Notes: generated from the letters alone by a model not told the origin. Positions 3,121 through 28,649 are shown, counted from the stretch's first letter. The stretch is DNA of 64,000 bases from Botryllus schlosseri (GCA_051294905.1 CM119373.1:4836001-4900000), one strand, 5' to 3'. A program made the numbers and translations.

Positions 3121-3977
3121 AATCGTGGTTAATTAATAGTTAACTTTTCTGACATGGAATAATTCAAATAAACCTTATAGGAAATTTAAGGTCAGTGTAA
3201 CAAACGTTTGTAGTTGCGACGCAATTGTAAAACTTAATACGATGCACCACTTATCGTAGCTCTCTCTCACATGCCGTAGTGAATTAATATTACCGTACTA
3301 TAATTATTACGTAACCAAAAGCCTGGTTTGGAAGCTATAGTGTAGTTACAGTATAGAGATCTCTACAATCTCTATAGTGGCAAACATACAGTAGTATATC
3401 AGCCCGTCTGAGCCTGCGACAGGCTGGAAAAATGACTTCAAATTGACTTTCTACTTTCTTTCGCTAAACAATCATCATATCTTCGTAATAACTGTTCGAT
3501 TAGCGCGAGGCACGAGGATAAAATACCATCATTACAGACTCACATTTGCAAGTTACTGTACCGCAAATTTTTGCCGCTTCAAGGTTCATGAAAGTATGTA
3601 CCCCAAATGGTACAATTTTGGGTCGACACGGTGCCAGAGCTATCTGTTAATATGTATGTAATATTTGCTGAATTTATTGCAAAAAATCCTGCGATAATTT
3701 TCACATGTCCAAGGTCACTGTGTTGGGTACCGTAGCCAATAAGCGAGACACGCAGAAAATATGGCTTTATCGTGAGAAGTCATGATAAGATTTATCCGAC
3801 TGTTTTGTCTGGAAAACATTGTCGAAGACCGTTGGGATGAACTAGTGTAGGCCTGTAGGGGTGTGCAACGAGCGAGTTCAGGCCTATGAGATTCATTCAT
3901 TTCGAGTCCAAATCCTTCTGCGTCGGGGCACATGAAGACGTAAAGTTTTGGCGAACAAACCGCTGATAAAATGCGGT

Positions 3978-4320
3978 AGTAGTATATAGTTTGTGCTCGA
4001 CGTGCGCATGCAAGGAATATAATAAACATACAAGAATTATCAATATAAAAGATACTGAAAGAAATACCTCATTCTCATTTTTGCAGCAATACTTTTATGA
4101 CCTTGCGTGCGGCAATCAGAAAAGGGGGGATTGACTGAGAGAAAACGAACAAAGAATCTGGATTGACCTTTGTACTCAGACTGGAGTACTTCTACTTGTA
4201 CTTTTCCACTCCTGATTCTACCTCGCCTGACCTCTGGTACACGAGACTTGTGTATTTGATATATATTATATTTTCCCGCGAATAACAATGGATTGACTTT
4301 TAATTTCAATGGTGTGCACG
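3978..4320 (+). repeat. Polinton left TIR (weaker homology continues to about 4560)
   Basis: Imperfect reverse complement of about 20053-20388. Confidence 0.9.
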
Positions 4321-4553
4321 CCGACGAATCGGTATAGTTCTCCTGTCTTGACTTGTCGTTCCGCGGTGGGTTGATTAATCCAATTGCGTGTGAACACGAT
4401 AGGATTTGGGAATATTTGCCCGTCAAACATGACGTCAGTATAGTATTTGTTCCTCCGGGTCCGTATGGGAGACCCCGGATCGTGTTTTAGGTGGATTGTC
4501 AATGCGTTCGGCCAGACGAAACGATGCAAGGTAACGATTCTGGTCTGCGTCAT
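4266..4553 (-). CDS. Small hypothetical protein (95 aa) overlapping the inner TIR
   Basis: ATG-started ORF downstream of the protease gene; a disrupted homolog (MTQPVGVTLHRQT*) lies at the inner right TIR, about 19834 onward on +. Confidence 0.35.
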   Translation of the reverse strand: MTQTRIVTLHRFVWPNALTIHLKHDPGSPIRTRRNKYYTDVMFDGQIFPNPIVFTRNWINQPTAERQVKTGELYRFVGVHTIEIKSQSIVIRGKI

Positions 4554-4705
4554 ACTGTCGTAGTTGACCTCTTTTTGCTCCCTGGATAGTAGCGAGTATG
4601 ATCTTTATGATGCCAACGACTCCCGAACGCTCGTAAAAAGACTATAACGTATGCTGTACAAGGTTTATTGAACATACACAATCTGAAAATACAAGTCACG
4701 AGTGT

Positions 4706-5212
4706 TCACAAAGTAGATTTTTCTTTGTTTACAAAATCAAAAACGAGGCGATCATTCACACGTTTATCAGAACCAAAAGCATCTAAATAATCGGGGGTAC
4801 CTACACCTTGACCCTTTCTAATCAGGAAGGCGATACAATGTTCACCACACACAAACGAACGCAAAGACTGTAATTGCACACTAGTGAAGGTATAATCGTC
4901 CGCGCCCAATAACTTATAGATCTCCTTCTTCAGAGGCGGAATCCCGAAAGAGTCGTGAAAGTGCGTGCCATCTTGATCGGCGAAGATACAGATCCAATGC
5001 GAGCCGCCCTTCGCGTTAGGGTCGTAATTGATAACGACTGCGTACGGCTTAAGTAGCTTTGCTGGTAATAAATCGATAGCGAAAGTCCCGGCAAATAAAT
5101 CTCGCGTGTCGCGATGATTGAATAAAATATGATTAATTTGGTCGGTGTTCATACGGACACTACTTCGCGCTTCTCTGAGATCTCCAAAAGTTGTTGGTAT
5201 TCTTTGAGACAC
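4706..5212 (-). CDS. Adenain-like cysteine maturation protease (PRO)
   Basis: Motifs INYDPNAKGGSHWICIF (His), HFHDSFG (Asp), QLQSLRSFVCGEHC (Gln/Cys). Confidence 0.95.
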   Translation of the reverse strand: MSQRIPTTFGDLREARSSVRMNTDQINHILFNHRDTRDLFAGTFAIDLLPAKLLKPYAVVINYDPNAKGGSHWICIFADQDGTHFHDSFGIPPLKKEIYKLLGADDYTFTSVQLQSLRSFVCGEHCIAFLIRKGQGVGTPDYLDAFGSDKRVNDRLVFDFVNKEKSTL

Positions 5213-6423
5213 AGTAGAGTCGCTCCTTCCGGCAACCCCGCGGTCAGGGTCATGTGAAGCTTCACGGACCCGGTCTTCTCGAGTTGAAAGCAGCCTTGAT
5301 GCGTACGGTCTGGGGTCAAATCGAACGCAAACAAAGTGTATCCCGCCTTATAATTCTCAGAGTCGATAAAAAGATCTTCCTGAGCATCCCACTTCCCGGT
5401 GGATTGGTAGACGCTGAAAAACCCCTCGAGGTTTGTGTTTTTATCAAAATCGAATCTGAAATTACGCCCGTACAAAAGCTTCCCGTTCACGTTGATAGCC
5501 AGATTTCCGACGTGATAGTGACAGAAATTAAAGGGGTTCCGAGTCTTACTACCGTTATAGGCAGCTGTCGGGACCAGACCAATCACGATTCGTCGAGGCA
5601 TGACCCCAGAAATCAGCGTTTTCTCAATGGAGGTATCACCCGCTCCAAAAGAGTGATTACTCATTTCGAGCTTTATAATAGGGTATTTCGCCGTGTGCGT
5701 ACGAAGCATCGTTTTGTGTGCCAAACTGACAGAGTCTGAAACTTGAATTTGCTTGACGTGCAATTCCACTTTTTTCAATACGATTTTCGAGTCGGCAGAC
5801 CCGAGGAGACAGAAATCGTCATCGTTACGGATTAATCGCAACGACAGATCCACGTTATCCAGTAAATATCTGTCCTGATCGAATAAACCGAGCGGTATCT
5901 TGCCGATGACCTCGAGCGTTGCACTGTCAGCGGTCAGGGCTTTACGTGCCGTGAAGCCGACGTTGTCTGCCGTGAAAGTATCCTGGTGTTTCATCGTATC
6001 CGGGATCCAGCCGATACATTTCAGATAGGTTTCGCCGGCCGCGCGAGAGCTATTTAGTAGATGGAAAATGAAGCTTTTGTAGGCGTGGTTGTTGTCCGAT
6101 GTGGTGATCAGCTTCGAACCCAGATACAGATCGATCTGCTTGAATAAGGCGTCGAATATATCCGACACGACAGCGACGTTGTCTCCCCCGATCGTGGTGC
6201 AATCTTTTTTGGTGACTTGCAGGTGTATTTTCATAAACGAGCTGGACAAATCCAAGTAATGATCGCTACCTTTCACGTTAATCTCAATGACATCGCCCAA
6301 TTTATCCGGTGTGGCGATCAACGTACTGGTGTCGGCGACCGCCGTTTGCGTCGGTGGTACCGTGAAAATATCTAATCCGCTGTTGAGGCACTCGGCCGAA
6401 TTTTCGTGCATCAATTTAGCCAT
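5149..6423 (-). CDS. Double jelly-roll major capsid protein (Polinton PY / hexon-like), 424 aa
   Basis: N-terminal ECLNSGLDIFTVPPTQTAV, MPRRIVIGLV, AYNGSKTRNPFNFCHY, GYTLFAFDLTPD motifs typical of Polinton MCP. Confidence 0.95.
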   Translation of the reverse strand: MAKLMHENSAECLNSGLDIFTVPPTQTAVADTSTLIATPDKLGDVIEINVKGSDHYLDLSSSFMKIHLQVTKKDCTTIGGDNVAVVSDIFDALFKQIDLYLGSKLITTSDNNHAYKSFIFHLLNSSRAAGETYLKCIGWIPDTMKHQDTFTADNVGFTARKALTADSATLEVIGKIPLGLFDQDRYLLDNVDLSLRLIRNDDDFCLLGSADSKIVLKKVELHVKQIQVSDSVSLAHKTMLRTHTAKYPIIKLEMSNHSFGAGDTSIEKTLISGVMPRRIVIGLVPTAAYNGSKTRNPFNFCHYHVGNLAINVNGKLLYGRNFRFDFDKNTNLEGFFSVYQSTGKWDAQEDLFIDSENYKAGYTLFAFDLTPDRTHQGCFQLEKTGSVKLHMTLTAGLPEGATLLCLKEYQQLLEISEKREVVSV

Positions 6424-6814
6424 CGAATATATCTCTCCGTCTACGTTTCTTGTTTGACGAAGTACCTCCCCGCGCGCCCTTTTTAAGCTTTTTCGTGGCT
6501 TTTCGTTTACGACCCCCGATCGCGGTATCGAGAAGCTGTAGACCTCCTTCTTTACTCCGTGATATAGCAGATTGCTTGAACGAGCGCCCGGCCACCAAAT
6601 CTTTCGCGATATTCGACCCGGTACGGAGGATTTGTTTCCCCAGTATCTTGGAGCCTTTTGACACTAGAGGTAAGACCGCCCGGCCTATGGTTCGAAAAAT
6701 CGACGCGAGTCCGCTACCGCTTTGCCTGGACCCCCGGTAAAACCCGTAATTCCCAGCTCCGGTCTGATAGTGGTGCAATACGGCTTCTCGGTCACAACAA
6801 TAGTGCACTTTCAT
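6416..6814 (-). CDS. PZ-like basic core protein, 132 aa
   Basis: HYQTGAG..FYRGSRQSGSGLASIFRTIGRAVLPLV motif and K/R-rich C-terminus; directly upstream of MCP. Confidence 0.8.
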   Translation of the reverse strand: MKVHYCCDREAVLHHYQTGAGNYGFYRGSRQSGSGLASIFRTIGRAVLPLVSKGSKILGKQILRTGSNIAKDLVAGRSFKQSAISRSKEGGLQLLDTAIGGRKRKATKKLKKGARGGTSSNKKRRRRDIFDG

Positions 6815-7176
6815 AACGACACCCTGAGATGTATCGTGAGGTCCAAACCCGAGATGTCCAATAATTCACCATACTCGTCCCTTATATAGATGTAGAAATA
6901 CTCGAAACGGTCGAGTCTGACTTTGGCGTAGTATCGATTTTGAAATATATGGTTTTGTCGCTCCCCCTCGTGTAGAGCAACGACTCTTAGCAACGGGACC
7001 AAAGCGTCACCCACCGGCGTCGACTCGATGTCATTACAGTAGATAAAAGCGTAGAGGCTTTCGCACGACTCACGAACAAAGTTTATCTCCATAAGAGCAA
7101 TCTCAAGACCTTTACAATCCATTCCGTGGGGTAGGGTAAATACGGGCTCGTCACCGGTCAGTGTTTGGAACGTCAT
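6811..7176 (-). CDS. Minor capsid (penton-like) paralog 3, minimal 121-aa form
   Basis: EIALMEINF, FIYCNDIESTPVGDALVPLLRVV, IYIRDEYGE...LTIHLR penton motifs with no central insert. Confidence 0.82.
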   Translation of the reverse strand: MTFQTLTGDEPVFTLPHGMDCKGLEIALMEINFVRESCESLYAFIYCNDIESTPVGDALVPLLRVVALHEGERQNHIFQNRYYAKVRLDRFEYFYIYIRDEYGELLDISGLDLTIHLRVSL

Positions 7177-7930
7177 CTCGTAAGTGAAGGGTCAATTCAA
7201 TGTCACCACATTTAAGTTCTTTTCCAAGAGAATCTCTTATGCTGATGCGTACGCTACGGAAGCTGTTGGCATCGGCGGGTAGGTAAAACGGTTTCCTGAA
7301 TGATACGTGCTGTCGTTTCATTTCCGGTACCGTAACGGGGATGATTCGTAGCAGTCTGGATATATAATCACCTACCGGGAGATGGCGCACGCAATCGCAA
7401 TATATAAATAAATACTGAGATTTTACTATCGACGGGATATACCACACATTGAATTCAATGTGCTCAACCTCGCGTAATGAGATCGGAACCTCTCCCTCCT
7501 CCGCGATGATGTCGTCAATATCGTATCTCTGATGCTCGTGTATGAGACGGTAGTTACCGAAATTCGCGTAAGGACCGAGCGTAGATGTGAGCAGAGAAGA
7601 ATTCGGTGGGAATCCCTCGCATACCAATCGATTCTGGCTGGGTGTAAAGTACCAGTGATAGCCGTTCACGAGTTCCTCGCTAATTCTTTGCATTAATTGA
7701 TCGACATTATCGAAATCTCCGGTGGGTAACTCATACACTTCGGTGACGTCTTTGACAATCGTATTCCAGAAGCTCATGGCCGGGGTGGGTTCTGTGATTA
7801 CAATTCTTTCTTGAAAATCGTGGTTGAAACTAATTTCACGGAGAGCGATCTGTTTACCCTCCGATTCGATTTCAACCGGTAATTCAACCGTGAAATCGGG
7901 TCCGCTTCCGAATATCGTGATATAGCTCAT
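7151..7930 (-). CDS. Minor capsid (penton-like) paralog 2, 259 aa
   Basis: IALREISF ... FIYCDCVRHLPVGDYISRLLRIIPV ... ISIRDSLGK ... LTLHLR. Confidence 0.88.
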   Translation of the reverse strand: MSYITIFGSGPDFTVELPVEIESEGKQIALREISFNHDFQERIVITEPTPAMSFWNTIVKDVTEVYELPTGDFDNVDQLMQRISEELVNGYHWYFTPSQNRLVCEGFPPNSSLLTSTLGPYANFGNYRLIHEHQRYDIDDIIAEEGEVPISLREVEHIEFNVWYIPSIVKSQYLFIYCDCVRHLPVGDYISRLLRIIPVTVPEMKRQHVSFRKPFYLPADANSFRSVRISIRDSLGKELKCGDIELTLHLRDDVPNTDR

Positions 7931-8730
7931 AACGCTTTGACGGCTCCTCGACGGATCAGTAAAGTCACTGTAACGGGAGCTGTTTTAAACGCGACAGGGT
8001 TATTGTTCTTGTCACGAAGATATACTCGTATATTTCGAATATTACTCTTGGCCAGGGGAAAAAAGTAAGGTTTATCATAGACACAGTGCTGTATTTTTCC
8101 TTCTTGCGCGGTGACCGGAACGCTTCGAAGGAGAGGTACTAGCTCGCTGCCGAATACACGAGGTCTGATCAGATCGGTGTATATATAAATGGTGTCTACA
8201 TCTTTCACAATGGTTTTCGGTCTGATTAAGAACTCTATTGGTTTTTGTTTCTTCAAAACATGATGTTCCACTGTAAAATAACGCGGAAACGTGTCCTCGA
8301 TGCTGGTGAGACGCGGACCCGCACCACTGATTTTTTTGACCCGTATCAAGGGCTCGTCGGCCTGTGGAAATCGACTCTTGAGATACCTAAAGCTCAAGCC
8401 GAACACGCCACCGGTATATTGCTTGATTGTAATTTCTTTCTCGTATCGCAAGCGAAACTGTTCCAACAGATCCGGGACACTACGATACTTGCCGGGCGGT
8501 ATGTAATACACGTGACGATGCCCGCTGTCAGAAAATTCGATACCCGCACGCTTGTGGTCTACCGTGAACGTGGGCTGGAAGCTCACTGGGAACATGATCT
8601 CGGCAAGCGATGCCTCATATCTTTCTGTATCATATTTTAACTCGGAGAATAGTTGGGTTACAAAATCGTTCGCGGTGTTAGCCTTAAAAACGCTCATTGA
8701 AGAATTACTCGGTAAAACCAGAAGAGTCAT
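7927..8730 (-). CDS. Minor capsid protein (PX/penton) paralog 1, 267 aa
   Basis: LVLPSNSSM..F..NTANDF, YEASLAEIMFP, YIYTDLIRP..G..VPLLRSVPV, LRDKNNNPVAF: canonical Polinton mCP motifs. Confidence 0.92.
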   Translation of the reverse strand: MTLLVLPSNSSMSVFKANTANDFVTQLFSELKYDTERYEASLAEIMFPVSFQPTFTVDHKRAGIEFSDSGHRHVYYIPPGKYRSVPDLLEQFRLRYEKEITIKQYTGGVFGLSFRYLKSRFPQADEPLIRVKKISGAGPRLTSIEDTFPRYFTVEHHVLKKQKPIEFLIRPKTIVKDVDTIYIYTDLIRPRVFGSELVPLLRSVPVTAQEGKIQHCVYDKPYFFPLAKSNIRNIRVYLRDKNNNPVAFKTAPVTVTLLIRRGAVKAL

Positions 8731-8902
8731 CCTCGTCGGCGGTTTGGAGAGACAGTACCCTAGTTAGCGAGGATAGATCCGTCTGGGTTTCGGTGAATAA
8801 GTTATACACAGTTGCCCCCACGATAAAAAACAGTATCGCGAGCTGTAGAACCCCCAAAGGTATCCGTAACGTACCCCGCTGCGATAAATCCATGATTACC
8901 AC
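8705..8902 (-). CDS. Small putative single-pass membrane protein, 65 aa
   Basis: Hydrophobic stretch LGVLQLAILFFIVGATVYNLF and acidic tail; fills the gap between INT and mCP1. Confidence 0.55.
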   Translation of the reverse strand: MVIMDLSQRGTLRIPLGVLQLAILFFIVGATVYNLFTETQTDLSSLTRVLSLQTADEDDSSGFTE

Positions 8903-8923
8903 GGTCGAGTTGTCGTGTCTGTT

Positions 8924-9928
8924 TTATACAAAACCGTCAACGTAAGAGTCCATCGATTTTGGATAACCCTCCCAGCGCACTAGATATCTCCGCTTGCGCC
9001 CCCTCCCGATCACTTTCTGTATCGATTCGACGCGATAGACATCGTCTTTTTTATCGATGGCTTGTAATTCACTTTCGTAGAACGTTCCACTAATTACGTC
9101 CCCGTTATAATCTCGGATGGTGTACGTAGCGGGGCTTCCCCATTTCCGTGTGTGTACGTAAAATATCTCGCGAGTCCAAGACCCCGCTGTCCCTTTTGCA
9201 AACGTGGCACGTCGGGTGGTAATTCTCACTGGTTGATCGACGGGTAGCTTGGGTGACACCGGAGGTCCGGTTCCGTTGTATAGTCTATCGAACACCAGAG
9301 ACGCGTTGCTATTGGTAACCTCCGACGGTCGCATTAAAATCGCGGTGTGATACGTTTGGTTATAGCTCTCTGCGATATCTCCCAGCACGTCGATGTAGCG
9401 ATGTGTGCGGTTCTTGACAAAGTAGCGATTCAATATATTGCGGGTCGTACGAATTACACGCTCTACGACGCTAGCCTTAGTATCGCTGTTGGTAAAAAAG
9501 TGCTTGACGTGGTTGTCTCTAAAAAACCTCTGTATAACCGACCCCGTGAATTCTTTCCCGGCATCAGTCTGAACGACGTGTGGCCTCTTATGAGCGAATA
9601 CCTGGTTGAAGCCCTCGATCATATCTATCGGACGCTTTCGCTTCGTGGCGTGTAAAAACATATATTTCGAAAAACAACAAATTGACACCAACACATAACG
9701 ATAGCCATCATTGCTACTAGAAATATTAGACAAGTCCATGAGGTCACTCTGGATCTGAATAAATGGCCCGCCGACGATCGTCTTCTGTCGCTGAAATTTG
9801 CCGGTATACGGATAGAACAGGGTGTAGCTATCCTCTTGTTTCAAATCCTTCTTGTCGGGGTGCAAGTATTTACCGCGATAGCTCGCCGGGGCTTTGATGT
9901 CAAAATATTTATCCTTACTAGTCATCAT
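8924..9928 (-). CDS. int: Retroviral-like DDE integrase with C-terminal chromodomain
   Basis: QIQSDLMDL (D), VQTDAGKEF (D), KASVVERVIRT (E), YNQTYHTAI, WTREIF, and chromodomain RYLVRWEGYPKSMDSYV. Confidence 0.96.
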   Translation of the reverse strand: MMTSKDKYFDIKAPASYRGKYLHPDKKDLKQEDSYTLFYPYTGKFQRQKTIVGGPFIQIQSDLMDLSNISSSNDGYRYVLVSICCFSKYMFLHATKRKRPIDMIEGFNQVFAHKRPHVVQTDAGKEFTGSVIQRFFRDNHVKHFFTNSDTKASVVERVIRTTRNILNRYFVKNRTHRYIDVLGDIAESYNQTYHTAILMRPSEVTNSNASLVFDRLYNGTGPPVSPKLPVDQPVRITTRRATFAKGTAGSWTREIFYVHTRKWGSPATYTIRDYNGDVISGTFYESELQAIDKKDDVYRVESIQKVIGRGRKRRYLVRWEGYPKSMDSYVDGFV

Positions 9929-10367
9929 CGTAGGCCGTCCACGACCCGTAGAGCTGGGGCGGCTTCCTGTTAGCTCGCCGGCTACGTTTGATGATCTCTT
10001 GTAGTGGCGGTGATCTTTTGGCTATCTTGCTTGTGGTGGGGGTACTTGGAGACGACGGGGCTTTCGGTGTTACTTTCGAGGTGACCCGACCCGGCTTCAC
10101 TTCGTGCAGTAATTCACGGAGAGTGGCTATCTGATCGTTCGTGAACCCGTTGGAGGTGTCGGTCATCTTCATCTGAAGAGGCTTGTCGATCTGACCCCGT
10201 TGACTTTTATACTTTGAGATGGCAGAGTTATACAAGGACAATTTCTTGTCGGCCGAAACGTCCATAGTCAAAATCGCGCTGATCGATCGGTCCAACTCGG
10301 AGTTCAAATCAGTCGCGTTAGAGGGGGCTAGAGGGTTAGGTGATATAACCACTTTTTTGAAATTCAT
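9918..10367 (-). CDS. Hypothetical protein, 149 aa (helical N-terminus, S/T/P/K-rich C-terminus)
   Basis: Coupled to both neighbours (ATGA overlap with the PW-like gene); MDVSADKKLSLYNSAISKY resembles the ORF often found upstream of Polinton INT. Confidence 0.7.
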   Translation of the reverse strand: MNFKKVVISPNPLAPSNATDLNSELDRSISAILTMDVSADKKLSLYNSAISKYKSQRGQIDKPLQMKMTDTSNGFTNDQIATLRELLHEVKPGRVTSKVTPKAPSSPSTPTTSKIAKRSPPLQEIIKRSRRANRKPPQLYGSWTAYDDD

Positions 10368-10738
10368 TTTTTACCAAAAACAGATTTCAGCAACGATGCC
10401 GCCAATGGCAGGATTGATAAGATACCGCTAATAAAACCGCCTCGTTGGGTGTTGGCGTGTAATACACGCCTCTTGGTCTTCAAGCTCACCTTTTTACTTG
10501 TCAGCTTTCGAATTTTGTCTTTATGCGGGTGTAAATTTTGTATATGGCGTTTTGACAGTCGCAGATTGCCGTTCAAAACATTCACACAGACTTCACAAAA
10601 TGCCTTCACCAAACCGGAAGAGCTTCCCAATAATATATCCTTCCTTACCGCGGGCGACGCCTTGGACAGAAATTTCAAAGTCTCGCCGTGCTTCTTAATA
10701 TAACAGTGACGTTTCGGCAGCGATTTGGTCCGAGCCAT
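10364..10738 (-). CDS. PW-like basic protein, 124 aa
   Basis: CEVCVNVLNGNL..., KVSLKTKRRVL..QRGGFISGILSILPLAASLL: basic body, protease-site-like QRGG|F and amphipathic tail. Confidence 0.85.
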   Translation of the reverse strand: MARTKSLPKRHCYIKKHGETLKFLSKASPAVRKDILLGSSSGLVKAFCEVCVNVLNGNLRLSKRHIQNLHPHKDKIRKLTSKKVSLKTKRRVLHANTQRGGFISGILSILPLAASLLKSVFGKK

Positions 10739-10776
10739 TATGAATATAGTGTCAAAAGTGTCGGCACTTTCGCTAT

Positions 10777-11418
10777 TTATAGTGGCGTGTACAACACGAG
10801 TTCATCCCCAGGAAACACCCCTGTTTTAACACGACTAGAATCGGGTGTGGCTTGCGTCAAATCTATGAAAAGGTACCCGTGAGCGTTCTTTGTCGCATCG
10901 GCATACGCGTCAACTAGAAATTTTGAGTTACCGGGGTACATTTGCTTGCCAAGAACTCGAATCTGAGATCGATCTCTAGGATTACGCATGATAATCAAAT
11001 ACTGGGTGCTGAGACTGAGGTCCCTCGATCTTTTGGACTGGAAATATAAATTTTGGACCGCGAATATTGTGGTCACCGAGCCGTGATTCGCGTAGACTGT
11101 AAAAAAGGGGGTCACCCTGTCCGAAAATTCCATTTTATCATCAATAATTAATAGAGTAGGACAGGGGCGGCTTGTCGCCAACTCATCCAAAATGGAGAGA
11201 TCCGAGTAAAACTCAACGCCTTGCAGCTCGTTAAAGGAGTCTTGATAAGCCGTATAGCAATAGATAATTCTTTTAATTCGCCCCTTTGAAAGCTGATCGA
11301 TATTTTTTATGACTTTAAATATAAAAGTACTCTTCCCCGAAAACGACGGTCCTGCCAAAAGACACGCCCTCCCTGTCGAGAAATCCATCACCAAGGCTGT
11401 TTTGACGCGACGAGACAT
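10777..11418 (-). CDS. A32/FtsK-like genome packaging ATPase
   Basis: Walker A GPSFSGKS, Walker B LLIIDD, FAVQNLY, RDLSLSTQY, NPRDRSQI, GYLFIDL. Confidence 0.96.
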   Translation of the reverse strand: MSRRVKTALVMDFSTGRACLLAGPSFSGKSTFIFKVIKNIDQLSKGRIKRIIYCYTAYQDSFNELQGVEFYSDLSILDELATSRPCPTLLIIDDKMEFSDRVTPFFTVYANHGSVTTIFAVQNLYFQSKRSRDLSLSTQYLIIMRNPRDRSQIRVLGKQMYPGNSKFLVDAYADATKNAHGYLFIDLTQATPDSSRVKTGVFPGDELVLYTPL

Positions 11419-11537
11419 GTATTCACAAACACACTTCTATATATAACAAGGACAGGTACACGAAAAAATATGTCGATTCAGAGCGTCACGCAAACCGTCC
11501 ACACAGCGAATCTTACAATGTCCACGAGGCCGTCTTT

Positions 11538-12146
11538 TTACACCAGAAGCGAGGTGTCATAATCGACACGAGAAGACGAGGCATCATCAGGGCTCAGCGG
11601 TGTCATGGCCAAGACTCGAGGTCTACGAGGGGGAGGGTAAGGTGATACCCGGCCGGGTGACTTTTTTGTTACGATTTTAGTCAGATTCGGTCTTGGTAGC
11701 ACTGGCGACTGATGTATGTCTCTGGCACGCTGTGGTGTCGCCACGACAAACGGGGCAGTCAGATTCGGTCTTGGTATCACTGGCGACTGATGTATGATGT
11801 CTCTGGCACGCTGTGGTGTCGCAACGACAAACGGGGCGTCCACCACGGTAGGTGATGTGTCAACGGATTTAGGGGCGCGACGATCTTCTCTATGACCCGA
11901 TCGGAGATAACCCTGGTTCATGAAGCGGTATCGGGTGTTGTCGTTTCTTTCGTGAGTCAAGCGCTGATTGTGGCTCTGTACGCTGCAGGAGGCACGATCG
12001 GTTGGGTCTGTGAAGCCAACTTGACGACGATTCAAGATACGGGCATCAGTCAGCAGTCGGCTCGTCACATCATCGCCTTCATATGTGAACACAGGTAGAA
12101 ACTGCAGCTCCGTCACACACCGCAACAGGTCGTCTCGAAAGCTCAT
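11538..12146 (-). CDS. Hypothetical Pro/Arg/Ser/Thr-rich protein, 202 aa, with a two-copy internal repeat
   Basis: Open frame; repeat APFVVATPQRARDI(I)HQSPV.PRPNLT occurs twice (about 11680-11840). Confidence 0.6.
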   Translation of the reverse strand: MSFRDDLLRCVTELQFLPVFTYEGDDVTSRLLTDARILNRRQVGFTDPTDRASCSVQSHNQRLTHERNDNTRYRFMNQGYLRSGHREDRRAPKSVDTSPTVVDAPFVVATPQRARDIIHQSPVIPRPNLTAPFVVATPQRARDIHQSPVLPRPNLTKIVTKKSPGRVSPYPPPRRPRVLAMTPLSPDDASSSRVDYDTSLLV

Positions 12147-12417
12147 CCATTCTAGAACACAAAGGATAGTTACACATGTGTCGGGTAATGACTATTACTG
12201 CTTGGTTACCTGGTCTCAAGGTGGTGGCAGTGTGTAGACACTCCTGCAACTCTTTCTTGAAGTGAATCGTTTGCTGATCGGTCAGATTGTCTTCCAGCAG
12301 AATATCTTTCAGCACAGAGACACGATGCCAGTTGGCTTGGGTGTCGCGGTGAAGTCTATTGAGTGAAAGCTGGCCACAAACATGACTAATGAAATCGCTA
12401 GCTGAGTTATGAGTCAT
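12079..12417 (-). CDS. Hypothetical protein or exon starting right after a splice acceptor
   Basis: GTGTGTTATTTTTGTTTTTCCAG|ATG at 12417; open for 112 codons. Confidence 0.5.
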   Translation of the reverse strand: MTHNSASDFISHVCGQLSLNRLHRDTQANWHRVSVLKDILLEDNLTDQQTIHFKKELQECLHTATTLRPGNQAVIVITRHMCNYPLCSRMDELSRRPVAVCDGAAVSTCVHI

Positions 12418-12793
12418 CTGGAAAAACAAAAATAACACACATATTACAAACTGAAACGCCGCCTTCGAAAACTAGTCGCAAGCGACAGGCGTTGATGATA
12501 GAAAAAGCGTTCAATGTGGAATAAAATTTCACAGTGAGCACCAAAAGATAAACAATGTATGCCAACAAAATAGTGTCTTCGTTTTAACATGTCTTTGACG
12601 TGCCGCCGAAACACTATAAAATAAAATAATAGTAAGACTCCATACTTGTGTCACAATATACAACCCCACCTGTTTTTAGGAATTCCATGTGACTCGACAG
12701 GTCTTGTAGCTGAGACGGGCGAGGAGGACGCCAGCAGATTCTTGTGTCTATGAATAAACGTGCCTTAGCAACGACAGAGAGCTAAGAGCATAT

Positions 12794-13036
12794 TTACACA
12801 CCCCCAATCTCCTCCAAAATGTTTCTGAGTCTTCTGACGTCCATGTTCAAAGCCTCTATCTTCAAGACCTCAGCCAAAAGTTCCACCCGGTCTGCCCCAC
12901 ATTCGTGTCGTATGATCAGGCCAAACAGAACGCCAATCTCAAACTTGTCTTTCTGCTCGCACGGAGGTAAATGATCGTACCCAGACATGTACTCCCTCAG
13001 GGGGAAGAATTCTGCATGATCAATGTATTGATCCAT
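12794..13036 (-). CDS. Hypothetical helical protein, 80 aa, starting right after a splice acceptor
   Basis: TTCTCAG|ATG at 13036; a 28-nt micro-exon candidate lies upstream (13096-13123). Confidence 0.55.
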   Translation of the reverse strand: MDQYIDHAEFFPLREYMSGYDHLPPCEQKDKFEIGVLFGLIIRHECGADRVELLAEVLKIEALNMDVRRLRNILEEIGGV

Positions 13037-13350
13037 CTGAGAATTGCGACAATTATGATTTCAATTTATGATGAATCATAACAGTTTCAACTCACCACGA
13101 TTCCTTCTATACGCTGATAAAATCTGAAAAGAAAAAACTCATTGTATTATACAATCATGAAACACAATACGCTTTTCCCCACCTGCTGTAAGCTATTGGC
13201 CTGCGGAGTTAATGCTATCGTCTGTAAACAACGCGAGAAAACGAGCACTATTGTGAAAGATGCATAGAATAATTCGAGTCAACATGAGAGCATAATGCGA
13301 AAACAGGTTTTAAAAAAGCACAGAATACGGAAAGTACACATTTGAAAAAA

Positions 13351-16300
13351 TCATAGTTCCAAGGGTCTCGTATGAATACCGTCTGATTCGACTATTCGCT
13401 TACAGTAGAAGTGAGACAGGGCCGATCGAAATTGCTCATAGGTAAAAATGGAGGCATTTTTCCGTACAAAACCCGAATTAATATCCCCATGCGGTTTTTT
13501 CTCAAACAAAACTTTCCGGTAGATGTCAGCAGTCAGTTTGTTTACTTTTGAGAGCCCTTTGCATGAGTACTTATCCTCATTGCAATAATAAGTCTTTGCG
13601 GACAGTCCAACAAAAATATTCGATTGTGCCTCAATTTTGAAAAGACCACTGGTCCGTTGATCATATCGATTACGAGCTTTACAACAGGCACGTTTATCAT
13701 TGAACGAGAGAGGATTGGCCAAAAATTCGCTACGGTGCTCGTCACAGGCGATTGCTGGAAAATATTTGTGAAAATTTTCAAGAAATTCTGCTTGTTTTTC
13801 GGGTCGTGCAACTTTTAGCAGGCTGTCAGAGGAGATAGCGCCGTACCAGGAATCAGTGTCCGAGTATAATAGTTCAATGGACCGTGGCAGGAGGTAGGTG
13901 GACATATACGAATGGAACCGTAATAAGGCCAATTTCGCATAACCATAGACAAAGTACCCAATGTGGTTAGGTTGGCTCCAAACATGTTTTCTCAATTTCA
14001 TGGACACCTCAAAAATATCTGGTGACAACTCAATCATTGATTTAAATCTGGAGTCATTTACCAAGACCATAGCTTTTTGACGGTTAACAATCTTGACATC
14101 AGAATATTTTGTACAATTCGAGATAGTTTTACCTATACAGGAATTTGCAATGTCCTTATAGAACTGCCCCAGTGGCTTCTGAGACGGATCATCGTCAGCC
14201 CGTCTTCTAGCCTCGGTTATCGTATCTACAAGAGAATTGAAACATTCAATGGGTTCAAACTCGATAGCTTGAAATATCTTAGTAACGATTAACCCATTCT
14301 CGAGGTACCACTTCAATAGTGGTGTTATTAACAATGTTTTTGTGGCCTGCAGAGTAGCAATCAAGAATTTCCGTGGCCGTTTCAAAAAACCATGTTGTTC
14401 AGCAAATGCTTTCATGTACGGGCCTATATCATCACGACTTACGTAAGCATGTTTGAACAGGGGACAGAACTCACTAAAATGCTCCTTGAGGTGACTAGGC
14501 ACATGAATATCGACCTCAACGGCCCCAAAAAATTGATCTTTTGACACCAACTCTAAGAGTTTCGAACTTGAAAGGACCCGACATTTCACCATTTTACTGG
14601 ATTCGAGCGTTTGAATAAAGGCAGCTATATCACTTCGTTGGCACATAATGACCCATTGACATTCTGTGATGTACTCCAATTTATACCCCACTTTTTGAAT
14701 ATACTGGATTTTACGCTGCGTCGCGGCCCAGCGGGCTTGGCGATCCGGGCTGGCTCGCAACTCGCAGCCGCGACCATGGTGAAAACATCCAAACAGCTCA
14801 AGTGCAACAGGCCCTTGTGGAGTCCTATAATACCCATCAATACAAATCTGGAGCAGGCCGATACGATGCTCAGGACCATTGAATTGATGTTGGATTTTGA
14901 CCCCCCGACAGTGCGCAATGTAGCTTAGCCATTGGTGAGCCATTTTTCCATAGAGCGGTGCCGTTTTTGTCCCGGAGAATAGAGTAAAATCTTCATTAGG
15001 TGACCACAGACAAGGATAGCCCCCCGGTAATCGTGAACGGAGAGTATCCAAATAAAGACAATTCGAATCCAGACCTAGCACCTGTTCTACAGGTAGAGCG
15101 CTATCGCCATAGATTTGGGGTTTGATTTTTGTGACTTTAGCCTCTGCATATCGCAATGAAACAACGGAAAGCCCGCCACGTAGATTTTCACGTATCAAGG
15201 TGTGTATATGGCTATACTTTTGATTCAACAAAGTGAATACAGGTGGTATGCTATTAAACACAAACCTTGAGGCCAGAGAGGGCAATGATATACCGTCTTT
15301 ACTCATGTCAATTGAGTAACGAGCAAAGAGTTGCTTGTGCTTTGTGAGGGCCTCCAGTAACGGGCCGACATCTAAACTGACATAGAAAGAGAGATAGTCA
15401 CGAAAAGTAGTCATTTTATGTTCCGCCCACTTTGATTGACACCAAAGATATTGTTCATCAGTTATATTAGACCGTTTCAGTTTGTTATAAAAATGTATGT
15501 GGTCTGGGAGAGATTTTTCATCCAATACTGATAAATCAGTGAAATAGTTATATGGAAAAAAAGCCTTCGTTGAAGCACAGTTATGACAACGTGTGTATGC
15601 GTCATAACTTGTGCCAGCGCCAAGATACAAGGTCACATCCAAAAATCGAAATCGATTAGTCGACAAGGACATATACGACGTGCCCCTCTTAATAATACTG
15701 ATAGGGTCTGATAAGTACTCCACCAGATAGGGGATAATCAAAGGTATATCATAACGAGACCCATTGAAAGAGAATACAGGTAATTGACTCAAATAATTCA
15801 AAAAACGATGTTTCAATAAGGTCGCTGGGCTCATACGTTTGACATCCGGCTCAGCGGTATGCATTTCTTCAGCAATAAAATCTAATCGTTCCAACACGTC
15901 ATAAAATTGTTGACATAATGCCTCAAAACACTCACTTTGGATCAATTCAAACCGCGACATCATTCTAGCAACCAGCGCTCCCGGGTCGCCATCACTAATC
16001 AGTACTTCTGGGGTCTCGTACCCTGGGAAATTACAGGCGAAGGCCACCGCGGCCGGAATATGACAGTCCACATAGTGCACATTAGCAGTATCGTTTGGAG
16101 TCGAGCCTTTTTGTAATATACTCTCATAGTCAAAAACCAAGTTATATGGGTAGAAACGAGATGGTTTGGGCACAATTATCCCCAACTCGTCCAACGCTTC
16201 AAATATAGTAGGCTCGGGTTTGAACATACCGCCACGATAGTGATTAGGAATACCTCTAAAACAATTATGGCGATCGAGGAAGTATTTTGAACTGAACAGG

Positions 16301-17232
16301 CGATGACAGGTCTCACAGCTATAATTCTTGCAATACGAGTTCACGTTTTTAATATAACATGAATGTCTTCCCCCCTCTAAATGAACGTTAATTTTCAACC
16401 CCTACCGAGCACCGTGTCGTAGTATATACCCGACTCCTTCTTTCAATGTATAGACACAAATAGATACTTTAAGACATGACTCGACTTTATGTAAATCGCT
16501 CATACATACACCCGAGTCGGGGTCCCCATATAGAGCGGAATATTGTGCCACCAAAGAGAGCGTTTTAGATTGCAAGGCATCATCATCACGATAATTACCA
16601 CCACAAAGCATAACGGCAACACAGCGGAATATACAATAATTATCATCATATGGTACACCGCGTCGATTTTTCACTAAGGCTAGAATAACATGTGAATTAG
16701 CAATAGCCTCCGGCATGTTGAATGCACTACACCCAATTAATCTGAAGTCTGATTTGTACACATAAAAGGTAACGTTTGTGACTTCCAAGACAACAAATTT
16801 AGTATTGTCTCTTTGAAAGCGAGCACTCTCGAAGCCAGCGGCCAAGTCTATATCGTCTACAAATTGGTCAAAGTCACTACGATTGGCAATCATTTTAGGT
16901 GTATCCAACATAACACCTGCGTTCTCGGACGCATGATAGTATCTCAATTCGCTTGTCTCGACATTATCAAGTAGGAACCCCAGAGCGTAATTGATTCGAA
17001 AACCATACTGTTGTGAGATGAAGATGTCCTGTAGATCGTTGATGACGTCACTGGGGTTGCGGCCGAGTATACGGAAATTGTGTAGACTGCGTATACTGTG
17101 CGGGGCCAGTGTCGAGCTGCGAATGGAGTGCCAGTTTTCTTCCACGATCTCGATCAGATTTTCAGGTATACCCAAGCTGCTTGGTTGTGCAAAATCAGAC
17201 ACAATTCTAACAAGGCGTCGTCGCCTAGACAT
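13351..17232 (-). CDS. polB: Protein-primed DNA polymerase B polyprotein (terminal-protein region, vOTU-like protease, Zn finger, exonuclease, polymerase with Vsr-like nuclease insert); one in-frame TAG at 16402-16404
   Basis: ORF-track entries 16402-17337 and 13351-16398 share a frame (…GAR*GLKIN…). Motifs DDNYCIFRC, HSCYIKN, CxxC..H, VFDYES, FNGSRYD, LDSNCLY, KDIANSCIGK, YSDTDS, LSAKTY; insert IQHQFNG..IDGY..ELFGCFHHG..ITECQW. Confidence 0.93.
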
Positions 17233-17343
17233 TCTGGAAACAAAAAACACACAATCAATAACAGGTAGCACAAAACACACATAAATACATATGATATTAC
17301 AGCATAAGTATGTGATTAAAACACGATAGTACACCAAAAACAG

Positions 17344-17829
17344 TTACACATTCGTATAAAATTTCATGGTAGCTCTGGCAGCTGACATCTCTTTGAGAAA
17401 GGCAACTTTCGCACGCATGATGCGTTCCAGGGGTAATTGCATACGCAAATCCTGGCCGTTCGACTGAGATAGTATCTGCGAAATTTCTTGCTCTATCCGG
17501 TTATAATCTTGAGTGAATGTTTCATGAGAAGGAAAACTAGATCTTGAAAGTATATCATCCACTTCCCCCAGAATAGTGAACATCGAGTCAGATGGGGCGA
17601 TTGAAATAGCCTCAACAATGGTCGCCTTGAGGTGCTCCATCATTCGTCTACTATATTTACCAAACCTCTCACCCCCAGGTCTACGTCTGGATGGGAATAC
17701 AGGAGGTTGGGCTGGATTTTCTACATTTTCTGAAATATCATTTGCAGGGCTAATCGCATCGAGCAGGTCTACCGGATAACCACCTTCCATCAATTCTGGT
17801 ATCCCGTTATCAGCCATAGTCATGAGCAA
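17344..17829 (-). CDS. Hypothetical 161-aa ORF, possibly the first coding exon of pPolB
   Basis: Open frame upstream of pPolB; its stop codon lies inside a candidate 114-nt intron (17234-17347). Confidence 0.65.
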   Translation of the reverse strand: MLMTMADNGIPELMEGGYPVDLLDAISPANDISENVENPAQPPVFPSRRRPGGERFGKYSRRMMEHLKATIVEAISIAPSDSMFTILGEVDDILSRSSFPSHETFTQDYNRIEQEISQILSQSNGQDLRMQLPLERIMRAKVAFLKEMSAARATMKFYTNV

Positions 17830-17847
17830 AGATTTGTGATGGTAAGC

Positions 17848-18210
17848 TCAATTTACACTTACTTATAGACACTGTAGCCACATGACAAGCAGAAGAAGGG
17901 ACTCATCACAGTTTAACAGTGCCAGCAAAACGAGGAAAGGAATTTTATGACCCTCCACTCGCCTTTTCCCCCAACCACTTGAATATACATACAAGCCTCT
18001 TTTTTTCTCTCGTGCCATACTCGCATACCCAATTTACGCTTACTTATAGACACTGTGAGCCACATGACAATTGGAAGAAGGTATTTAAAACAGTTAAATA
18101 GAGCCGGCAAAATTCGGCAAGAAATTTTATGACACTCTAATCGGCCTTTTTCCCCCCAACCATTTGAATATAAATACAAGACTCTTTTTCTCTAGTGACA
18201 TACTTACAGG
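17848..18210. promoter_or_regulatory. Divergent promoter region built from a diverged tandem duplication of about 182 bp
   Basis: TTACTTATAGACACTGT...CCACATGACAA and ATTTTATGAC...CCCCAACCA.TTGAATATA.ATACAAG each occur twice; TATAAATA at 18169-18176 upstream of the ATG at 18223. Confidence 0.6.
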
Positions 18211-18222
18211 CATAATTACACT

Positions 18223-18930
18223 ATGGCATGTAAATACAACCCGTACGAAAATACTGCAACGAAGCGCAAGCTAGATATTGACTTGAAACGGGCTACCCCG
18301 TCTCATATCCCAAATTTCGACAATGCCACCAGTTTCTATGGCATGGAAGTCAGCTTCGACGGACGTGTGCAATTGGCGTCGACCAGACGACATGGACCCA
18401 AGATGACTTATGTGAAAGTCTTGATCACAGATGGTAAAAAATCTCTACCAGGGGTGATATTCAATGACAAATTACTGGACTGCATCGAAACTGCATACAG
18501 ACAAGGTCATACTATGACATTCTGTAACATCAAGATCACTGCTGACGCAAGAACTGATGCCCCGTCATTAATCATTGGGCGCAATTCTACTGTTACAAAG
18601 AGCAAAGCACGCTTACCCTGTCCGGAGATGGTTGAATTCCGATACGTGTCCGCTGAAGATATCCAAAAAGGCTTGTACGATGACAAGATTGTTAATTACA
18701 GAGGTCTCTGTATTGCCACGGATTCTGAATCCATTGGCACAACCTCGGAGAGAAAGCTACATTCATATGCCTTAGTGAATGGTGACATTTCTGTTGATCT
18801 GAAAAATTGGGGTATTATACCGTTATTCACTGCTGACAAATACTATGATGTCACCCATCTACGTGTACAAGTCCGATCAGGCAAACGTGAGCTGTTCTTA
18901 CAAGACTATTCGCGTATTTGCAAAGAATGA
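18223..18930 (+). CDS. Tandem OB-fold protein, probable ssDNA-binding protein, 235 aa
   Basis: Two beta-rich units with RPA-like patterns (YVKVLITDGKKSLPGVIF...TMTFCNIKI...LIIGRNSTV; VNYRGLCI...YALVNGDISVDLKNWG...YDVTHLRVQ); AATAAA at 18947. Confidence 0.65.
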   Translation: MACKYNPYENTATKRKLDIDLKRATPSHIPNFDNATSFYGMEVSFDGRVQLASTRRHGPKMTYVKVLITDGKKSLPGVIFNDKLLDCIETAYRQGHTMTFCNIKITADARTDAPSLIIGRNSTVTKSKARLPCPEMVEFRYVSAEDIQKGLYDDKIVNYRGLCIATDSESIGTTSERKLHSYALVNGDISVDLKNWGIIPLFTADKYYDVTHLRVQVRSGKRELFLQDYSRICKE

Positions 18931-20052
18931 ACTGTTTCATGTATGAAATAAAAGAAACATGTGATTATTTTGTTGACACTATCAGAGATTAGCGTTGGTT
19001 ATAGTTAACTTTCTAACCTGCCAGAATACATCATCTTTCAATATCATACTACTAGCTATCGTCTCGACTCGGTAATCTCACACGAGCGGCGTGGAAAGAG
19101 GTTATCAGATTGTAAAACTGCTTGTTTGTGAGAGCACTATACGCCGTGATAATTAAAACAGAGCGAGACAGTACCATAGTATATTAACTGGGGGAAAATC
19201 GTCGTGATAGTTAATCAATACTCAACTCTCGCTTCCAGTATAGTGACCAAGCGACACCAGAGACCAATGTCCAACGTTTTCGAACAAAGAGAATAGCTCT
19301 TCATCACAGCAGGGTGTATTGCAGGACAAAGGCGCTGTGCATGTCTACGAGGCGACATGGCTGTTTTCGAAAGCGAGATTGTCGCTCCTCGGCACAGCAG
19401 GGTGGATCACAAAACAAAAGGCGCTATACAGTCTACGCGGCCGCATGTCTATTTTCGAAAGCGAGATTGATCATCGTTAAATGGGTCTTGGACAAAAGCA
19501 ACGATAGCAGCGCGTCGTATAATATCCAAGCTAGGGAGTTATAGTATACTATAAACCTGATCCTCACACCGACAAACGAACCGTAACCACAATTCTAATA
19601 CCGCGATAATCCATATACAATTATGCACCATACCTAGAGCTTTCAAAATATCAGGTGACGGGCTTCGAGCGATCGTCGACACGTGACCCGTGCTCTGTGA
19701 CCCGTAACAATAGCGAGGGCTTTATTTACATCGGTGTTCTCGAGAACTCTAGTTGACACGTATATTTATAACCATAACAGATCATTTCTCCCGTTACAAC
19801 CTCGATCAATAAGAAAGTAGAGTACGATTCCAGTATGACACAGCCCGTAGGCGTCACTCTGCACAGACAAACGTAGATAACCGATAATCCACTTTGGCGA
19901 TTCATCTGATCGGACGCGCGTTGACAATCCACCTAAAACACGCACCGGGATCTCACGGGTCCGAAGGAACAAATACTATACTGTTGTTCGCGGGGGAAAT
20001 ATAAAAATACTATACTGTTGTTGTTCGGGGGAAATATAAAAATTACTAGTAA

Positions 20053-20388
20053 GTACATACCATTGAAATTAAAAGCCGATCCATTGTTACTCGAGGGAAA
20101 ATATAAAAAATAATACACAAGTCTCGTGTCCAGAGGCGAGGTAGAATCAGGAGTGGAAAAGTACAAGTAGAAGTACTCCAGTCTGAGTACAAAGGTCAAT
20201 CCAGATTCTTTGTTCGTTTTCTCTCTAGCGATAATTCCCCCCTTTTCTGATTGCCGCACGCAAGGTCATAAAAGTATTGCTGCAAAAATGAGAATGAGGT
20301 ATTTCTTTCAGTATCTTTTATATTGATAATTCTTGTATGTTTATTATAATCCTTGCATGCGCACGTCGAGCACAAACTATATACTACT
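20053..20388 (-). repeat. Polinton right TIR (weaker homology continues to about 19830)
   Basis: Imperfect reverse complement of 3978-4320. Confidence 0.9.
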
Positions 20389-21218
20389 TGCGGTGCCGAA
20401 AACATAAGCGGCGACAAAACCTCGGTCTACAAATGACCGATGCTGGATGACCAAGCCTTTCGAGATGGATTGGATAGTCTCGTTCATGTAGGGTAGACAG
20501 TAGTATAATTGCGATACGCAGAGGGATTTAATTCTCCCTAATTTGAAATCGCGAGCGTCATACATGTTTTGTAGAGCTGTCTTGATTAGAATTGTGGTGT
20601 AGGCCTACGTGTTCTGTATGTCATACATGCCCGTAAAATCGTAGCATACAATTTGCTTCCCAATGCCAACCTCCATAACGAGGCTGATTGTGGGGGTTCC
20701 AGGGCCGCAAGCGGAATAAAATATATATTTTCGTCATCAGTGCAGAGTCAGCTTTCGATTGATACCCGTTTTACCTAATTTAATGCGCGGCAAGCCGGTC
20801 AAAAATAACCGTCAAATTGCCTGTAACCAAATGGAAATTGTGACGTGATACAATTTCACTGAGCCGTGAGATTTGCTTGTGTCGACACCATATAGGACAC
20901 TATGATACAACTGTAATATTAAAAATGAATTCCTTTTCATGGGTGAGGCTCAGGTCGCGAGATGCCACAAAAACTCAAATTTTGGTGGTATAGTCTAACT
21001 CTAAAAGCAGCTATACCGTTAACAAACTGTTATATGAATTCTCAAGTGAGATTGAGCTAAAGAGTAAAACACAAAGTATCGTGAGTTATTTGCTCTTCTC
21101 ATAAACTCGCGAGACGGAAGTTGGAGAAACGTATCATAAGGTAGCGAGCTCTAATGTGCCTTGATCGTTTTGCACCTTATGTTCCAAAGACACAAGGCAA
21201 AAGCCTCAACACAAACAT

Positions 21219-28591: not shown

Positions 28592-28649
28592 GTATTCTTT
28601 TTGGTCGAAAGTTGTTATTGTTAACTTTAATGTAACAGTTACTTTAGAC

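Follow-up and report, generated by a model that had tools for sequence, protein, structure and literature searches.

We found that a Polinton within the window (the whole 64,000-nucleotide stretch of Botryllus schlosseri DNA analysed here) encodes three tandem, overlapping penton paralogs, of which A and B bear an insertion domain, or crown, and C is a bare jelly-roll of 121 aa. All three belong to the penton family, A and C on predicted fold and B on sequence and tree, and each is maintained under purifying selection. Sequence comparison shows that they stem from ancient duplication of the Polinton penton gene and have been conserved. Their products may share the capsid vertices in mixed rings of five, a reading to which we give a probability of about 0.45.

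Three genes at the penton position of a Polinton

The ends of the element read AGTAGT...ACTACT, in agreement with the terminal motif AGTAGT reported for Mavericks (PMC8097293), and a 6-bp target duplication, TGCGGT, flanks it at 3972-3977 and 20389-20394. Its main features are as follows.

3978..20388, no strand assigned: whole Polinton, 16,411 bp, with terminal inverted repeats
4706..5152, minus strand: putative adenain-like cysteine protease, 148 aa, from position and H/D/C motifs
5149..6423, minus strand: major capsid protein, 424 aa, putative double jelly-roll by look-alike
6416..6814, minus strand: basic protein, 132 aa, occupying the PW position (pentons on one side, major capsid gene on the other)
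6811..7176, minus strand: penton C, 121 aa, a bare single jelly-roll of eight strands with a 9-residue DE loop (7051-7077), without LPSN
7151..7930, minus strand: penton B, 259 aa, with a 138-aa insertion domain, without the LPSN BC-loop motif
7927..8730, minus strand: penton A, 267 aa, canonical PX-type, with a 133-aa insertion domain between strands D and E
8924..9928, minus strand: rve integrase with C-terminal chromodomain, adjoining the pentons upstream
10777..11418, minus strand: putative packaging ATPase, 213 aa, with Walker A; P-loop Pfam matches weak, below cut-off
13351..16227, minus strand: polymerase ORF, 958 aa, putative protein-primed family B, with exonuclease and polymerase motifs by eye

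Read along the minus strand, polymerase and ATPase come first, then two small ORFs, the integrase, the three pentons, the 132-aa basic ORF, and finally major capsid and protease. This matches the Polinton block order int - penton - PW - MCP - protease, except that the penton slot holds three genes. The vertebrate Maverick block is described as int - mcp - pw - Mcp - pro (PMC8097293), and the 132-aa basic protein, kept in 7/7 of the families described below, is PW-like by position, as in those elements. The PX protein of Polintons/Mavericks is the adintovirus Penton, and the genes found here share its single jelly-roll, DE insert and position in the block (PMC4028283; PMC8097293; PMC11071296), whereas one PX gene is described in PMC4028283 and PMC8097293 and three tandem copies are present here.

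The integrase matched Pfam rve at E 2.2e-7 (31.5 bits, just below the 32.6 cut-off) and Chromo at E 0.022. The major capsid protein had no match among PDB sequences; its Atlas matches (0.98) were to clusters in which only 14-30% of members carry the PF21738 DJR-like domain. Searches of Pfam with the protease ORF found no match, and its H/D/C residues are presumably those of the protease motifs. The polymerase ORF also gave no Pfam match; it contains FDYES, NGSRYD, LDSNCLY, KDIANSCIG and YSDTDS, which we take to be the polymerase-family motifs. Accessory ORFs lie at 11538-12417, 16402-17823 and 18223-18930 (the last on the plus strand), a repeat with 78-81 nt spacing occurs within 11538-12146, and the four accessory ORFs scanned had no Pfam match. 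Outside the element we noted, by eye, a BEL/Pao gag-like ORF of 740 aa (26369-28591) and a 51-nt tandem repeat (28142-28651), a PIF1-like helicase ORF of 511 aa inside a GC-rich island (33124-34659), and ORFs resembling DNA transposase remnants (39046-39525 and 45728-47908).

Sequence relationships of the paralogs

The original prediction placed three tandem penton-like paralogs at 6811-8730, and they are indeed present as three minus-strand ORFs, overlapping by 4 nt (A/B) and 26 nt (B/C). The N-terminal strand that it described as shared is found in all three (EASLAEIMF in A, QIALREISF in B and EIALMEINF in C), as is the C-terminal block (IYTD, IYCD and IYCN, respectively, with G-x5-LLR), except that A reads LRD where B and C read the expected IRD. 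The predicted middle region of about 130-140 aa in A and B and about 8 in C agrees with our measurements of 133, 138 and 9 aa, counted as residues from the EIxF strand to the next strand.

Across the three proteins, 19 alignment columns are invariant, and core identity is only 21-35%. Their likeness is beyond chance, as judged from pairwise blastp (E from about 1e-5 to 1e-15, searched in a small set of ORFs) and from the 3300 relatives recovered at E<=0.001 by a profile of the short paralogs. None of the three matched Pfam, and PDB sequence searches yielded nothing useful. A retains the motif LPSN..N..F in its BC loop (residues 6-23), LPSN..N being almost unchanged across 22 canonical pentons; LPSN is absent from B and C.

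Predicted folds and structural matches

The expectation that the 121-aa ORF folds as a single jelly-roll was confirmed by an AlphaFold2 model built with 114 sequences, which is an eight-stranded sandwich (pLDDT 91.5, pTM 0.83). In a structure search over 48,161 chains (VIA), the seven best matches of C were all capsid entries (Z 12.1 to 7.7), including Sputnik 3j26_N (Z 12.1, rmsd 2.5, 121 aligned), the mavirus penton 6g41_A (Z 11.9, rmsd 2.4, 118 aligned), PBCV-1 6ncl_a6 (Z 11.7, rmsd 2.8, 120 aligned; chain taken as P1 by size) and SGIV 8hif_y3 (Z 7.7; chain assigned to VP14 by size). No tectivirus penton was among the 50 fold matches listed for C.

A was predicted to be a jelly-roll plus insert (pLDDT 85.8, under 60 in the distal insert). 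Its best Foldseek match was the mavirus penton (E 1.6e-6), it matched 6ncl_a6 in VIA (Z 14.0, rmsd 3.2, 137 aligned), and its fold also matches the Sputnik and adenovirus pentons. By predicted fold, C and A share the eight-stranded single jelly-roll of solved pentons; a DE insertion domain is present in A, with an insert motif common to A and B, and is absent in C.

Conservation of the cassette and of gene C

When the 2.1-kb block was compared with the genome (495.5 Mb), 29 matches were found, 20 of them near full length at 94-100% identity (the family-1 copies). C is open at 121 aa in 20/20 of these copies, B at 259 aa in 20/20 and A at 267 aa in 18/20, and gap-free contigs span C in three of the four public runs (X1, X2 and X12). 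C is therefore not an internal deletion private to one copy, the possibility on which the original prediction would have fallen, nor is it an assembly error. The piN/piS of C among family-1 copies is 0.11, which likewise rules out a pseudogene; the corresponding values are 0.07 for the integrase, 0.06 for the basic ORF and 0.07-0.31 for the A and B cores. The cassette is real and conserved, and it is probably functional.

In the more degraded subfamily L021, C is shortened or fused. Contigs from run X12, which is labelled as a second organism, are about 98-99% identical to the cassette over window positions 5100-10000. That runs X1-X3 are RNA is our guess. No read fell on 6036-9500 in three RNA runs with the species label, each sampled to 3-13%. 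The only well-covered bin in the RNA runs was 11349-11550, where most reads fit only in part and other copies are a possible source; in two runs, poly(A)-like loose ends lie at 11400, a little inside the start of the ATPase gene, and suggest a minus-strand transcript stopping before the structural block.

Insertion domains and their exchange

The insertion domains and the recombinant tract discussed here are located as follows.

8191..8589, minus strand: crown (insertion domain) of A, spanning residues 48-180; a PxGx(Y/F)-helix motif occupies residues 75-92
7412..7825, minus strand: insertion (crown) domain of B, residues 36-173, distal part (about 7380-7680) replaced in copy L023
L023:3860-4100, compared with L021: recombinant B insert from a sister-subfamily source

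The A insert begins after strand E38-48 of the AF2 model, and insert length over 118 units has a median of 126.5 aa (quartiles 112-145). The A and B inserts had been taken to be unrelated, which proved wrong for the proximal part: their first 43 columns align (hhalign probability 84.5, E 6.9e-6), and the aligned columns include the PxGx(Y/F)-helix motif, so unrelatedness is rejected for that part. No alignment was obtained between the distal halves of A and B. On a profile of canonical PX inserts, 8/8 inserts outscored 100/100 of their own shuffles, but at 5-12 bits only.

Among family-1 copies, the A and B inserts evolve under purifying selection (piN/piS 0.24 and 0.28, respectively), and no positive selection on them was seen. 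Between distant families, inserts are 25-34% identical vs 43-52% for cores. In C and in the A/B cores, copy L023 and the window are 97-99% identical, but in the B insert identity drops to 75%, and pS there is 0.36 vs 0.06. The divergent tract is closer to the L021 subfamily (91-92% identity) than to the other 19 copies (76-78%); mismatch along it is 24% to the window and 4-13% to L021, and 3' of it 1-4% and 5-13%. Synonymous and non-synonymous change are raised together in the tract, which fits recombination. This shows that the distal crown of B is exchangeable between subfamilies. Of the swappable receptor-binding spikes proposed earlier, swapping is thus seen directly in one recombinant among 20 copies, and receptor binding is putative.

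Families of the element and order of gain

Further loci from the same genome form seven families by major capsid identity. Families 1-4, whose major capsid proteins are 48-79% identical and whose synonymous sites are saturated, have the A-B-C arrangement; C, at 121-137 aa, was found in 4/5 family-2, 4/4 family-3 and 6/6 family-4 loci, the counts for families 3 and 4 being favourable because those loci were chosen by a C query. Families 5-7 (32-35% identical to the others) have A-type and B-type pentons, with C absent in 9/9 loci; there B overlaps the next gene directly, and both A and B are open in 7/9.

The genome (G000) as a whole gave 521 and 548 candidate penton matches, a large Polinton load of at least seven families. 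In the two-penton loci L038-L046 (G000 C1, C2, C3, C4, C7 and C12), the polymerase adjoins the ATPase. Broken copies include L017 (internal deletion in the major capsid gene), L019 (polymerase joined next to penton A), L039 and L046 (B interrupted or shortened) and L043 (part of the integrase duplicated).

A tree of the jelly-roll columns groups the units by paralog and not by family (A 97.7/99, B 91.5/97, C 74.7/80, B+C 87.8/80). In a larger tree, all B and C units together with seven database units form one group (94.1/90), within which C falls in two parts; a single origin of C is not rejected (p-AU 0.33). These comparisons suggest that A most likely came first, that B was then added to it, and that C arose later from the B lineage. 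Alternatively, C may have been lost in families 5-7, the root being only a midpoint.

Relatives in other genomes and probable fused units

We examined 154 proteins, comprising the best 150 of the 3300 profile matches and a few more. Two jelly-roll cores are present in nine of them, and in six of those nine a bare unit stands directly before a crowned one. The bare-before-crowned arrangement in one called ORF was noted in P0013, P0014, P0018, P0037, P0129 and P0154 (and in P0160 and P0161), and five of these proteins have very large inserts of about 305-350 aa. The bare-plus-crowned proteins come from four sources; one cluster is labelled Actinostola by NCBI, and one of its members has an integrase-like tail in front. 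These ORFs, KAK3743572.1 among them, are probably true fusions. The second unit begins with a Met at each of the fused junctions, which would allow separate products. A quick tree, built on few columns, placed 5/6 of the bare-plus-crowned proteins with their own crowned halves, apart from the cassette, and the pairing therefore seems to have arisen twice.

Two crowned penton units per called ORF were seen in P0007, P0008, P0040 and P0152; the P0007 junction resembles a merger of two genes in different frames. Scans of viral contigs and metagenome contigs found no true locus, and L037 was discarded as a tailed-phage false positive. In a short-protein search, 0/29 matches had both jelly-roll halves; since the N-terminal profile used also missed the bare units P0001, P0004 and P0005, this null does not show rarity. 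As a lead, the Atlas contains look-alike clusters of 115-138 aa, with recognition under its mark.

Composition of the vertex

If the three products form mixed rings, A would hold the vertex in the capsid, B would provide a second, faster-changing outward domain exchangeable between co-resident elements, and C would occupy crown-less places in the ring; a vertex would then display more than one kind of crown and fewer than five in all. The crowns would be putative cell-binding parts, a role considered because no fibre gene was recognised in the element. A predicted complex of one A and four C scored 0.61, compared with 0.04 for the best of three controls; at least 62% of contacts were common to the runs, partner pLDDT was at least 66, and A contacts two C copies through jelly-roll strands. 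The mark for this score was reached by 51/78 solved complexes and 2/108 mismatched pairs, this job being unlike the calibration set, and the score may stem from likeness to solved penton rings. Only the A-C4 ring was modelled, so the score cannot separate mixed from pure rings.

The hetero-oligomeric vertices of the original prediction are compatible with this model and have a solved precedent in the vertex of PR772, whose mixed pentamer combines three P5 with two P31, the latter a penton of 126 residues that the authors propose avoids steric hindrance (PMC6750898). As in PR772/PRD1, a bare penton of about 125 residues stands here beside a homologous base with an outward domain (PMC6750898). 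Unlike the pentons described here, P5 of PR772 bears a C-terminal trimeric spike and no DE insert, so the reason for the 3:2 ratio is missing; moreover, PR772 has two paralogs and the present element three, known to us from genes alone. Relief of crowding by C, as suggested earlier, is weakened, since inserts of this length are common and C is missing from three families that have A and B; crowding alone does not explain C. The absence of C from those families also counts against mixed rings, as do the low core identity, the split of C in the larger tree and the want of reads over the block in the RNA runs sampled. In PBCV-1, the only solved eukaryotic case with two pentons, the rings are pure and stand at different vertices (PMC9617893).

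The paralogs could instead form separate homopentamers, with bare C at the common vertices and crowned pentons at a special one, which we consider unlikely but the most serious competitor. In PBCV-1, P1 occupies eleven vertices and P1v1, with a large DE insertion, the unique spike-bearing vertex (PMC9617893), and there, as here, the penton paralogs differ mainly in the DE insertion (PMC9617893). This is the reverse of the spike-less subunit at a special vertex envisaged originally, since in PBCV-1 the small-insert penton fills the 11 common vertices (PMC9617893). The C and A models match PBCV-1 chains 6ncl_a6 (Z 11.7 for C) and 8h2i_bG, both assigned by size, and low core identity would favour self-sorting. 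Yet A fits between C copies in the model, families without C would fill all vertices with crowned pentons, and the loss of the canonical loop motif may limit B and C alone. In addition, PBCV-1 is a giant virus with five major capsid variants, a spike and pure pentamers at different vertices, whereas this 16-kb element has one major capsid gene, and thus no variants to mark a special vertex, and two crowned paralogs.

Stacked jelly-rolls build the turrets of STIV, and A might likewise be the sole penton in the shell, with B and C stacked above it as a second layer or cap, or placed elsewhere in the capsid. Loss of the BC-loop motif in B and C would fit this arrangement, and a bare-plus-crowned chain cannot tile a single five-membered ring evenly unless it is cut or restarted. 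We regard it as improbable: in the model A and C are neighbours that touch through their jelly-rolls and not on the crown, B and C keep core residues common to A, and the Met at each fused junction allows separate products.

Inserts that change faster than cores, one of them exchanged by recombination, could also mean that the paralogs are alternatives for different particles, tissues or stages, with mainly one kind per particle; overlaps of 4 and 26 nt leave no room for separate non-coding control elements and no positive selection was seen, making this quite improbable. A non-structural role of C, and perhaps B, as assembly chaperone, decoy or inhibitor of competing Polinton families would suit a genome with at least seven such families, three of them without C, and a crown-less subunit entering rings could act dominantly, but it is very improbable given that C lies inside the morphogenetic block, overlapped on both sides, retains the ring-contact hairpin of the model, and has crown-less counterparts that are normal virion parts in SGIV (PMC10090177).

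Extending the mixed-ring reading, we tentatively propose, as a doubtful though arguable generalization, that vertices in a lineage of animal Polintons are combinatorial, with three paralogs, two exchangeable crowns that evolve separately, and the number of crowns per vertex set by a crown-less filler; that the design has re-arisen as a fused gene in another Polinton lineage, including sea-anemone elements; and that mixed vertices of the tectivirus kind would on this view have evolved anew on more than one occasion among integrating viruses of eukaryotes.

Relation to known pentons and implications

A jelly-roll with a DE insertion domain is shared with mavirus and Sputnik (6G41, 3J26_N), whose pentons are 7-11% identical to A and C; in mavirus the domain comprises 139 residues between strands D and E (PMC6048507), and that penton was crystallised as a pentamer of one protein. 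C resembles SGIV VP14, a crown-less single jelly-roll that forms the vertex pentamer, although VP14 is the only penton identified in that virion, with no crowned paralogs beside it (PMC10090177).

Adintoviruses, for which the criteria are a PolB with an N-terminal OTU domain and a hexon reciprocally recognised by reference hexons, include two named contigs with duplicate pentons and three others without the DE insert (PMC11071296). Duplicate and insert-less pentons are therefore already known there, each separately; the available text of that paper, supplements aside, mentions neither a penton triple nor bare and crowned paralogs side by side. The accessible portions of 10.1101/2023.08.22.554363, PMC11131425, 10.64898/2026.10.13.758929, PMC8502044, PMC9952930 and PMC12220804 describe no multi-penton element, and we found no paper on a conserved penton triple in a literature search whose scope lay largely outside subscription journals. 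As all of its parts have precedents, the cassette extends a known capsid design and is not a new class.

Annotation by one best penton match per genome hides such paralogs. The natural series of two-penton, three-penton and fused forms makes vertex composition testable with isolated proteins. Polinton particles are reported as never observed (PMC8097293; 10.1101/2023.08.22.554363); three conserved corner genes and an exchanged outward domain add to the case for passage through particles, and the penton pattern points to the vertex as the part under pressure.
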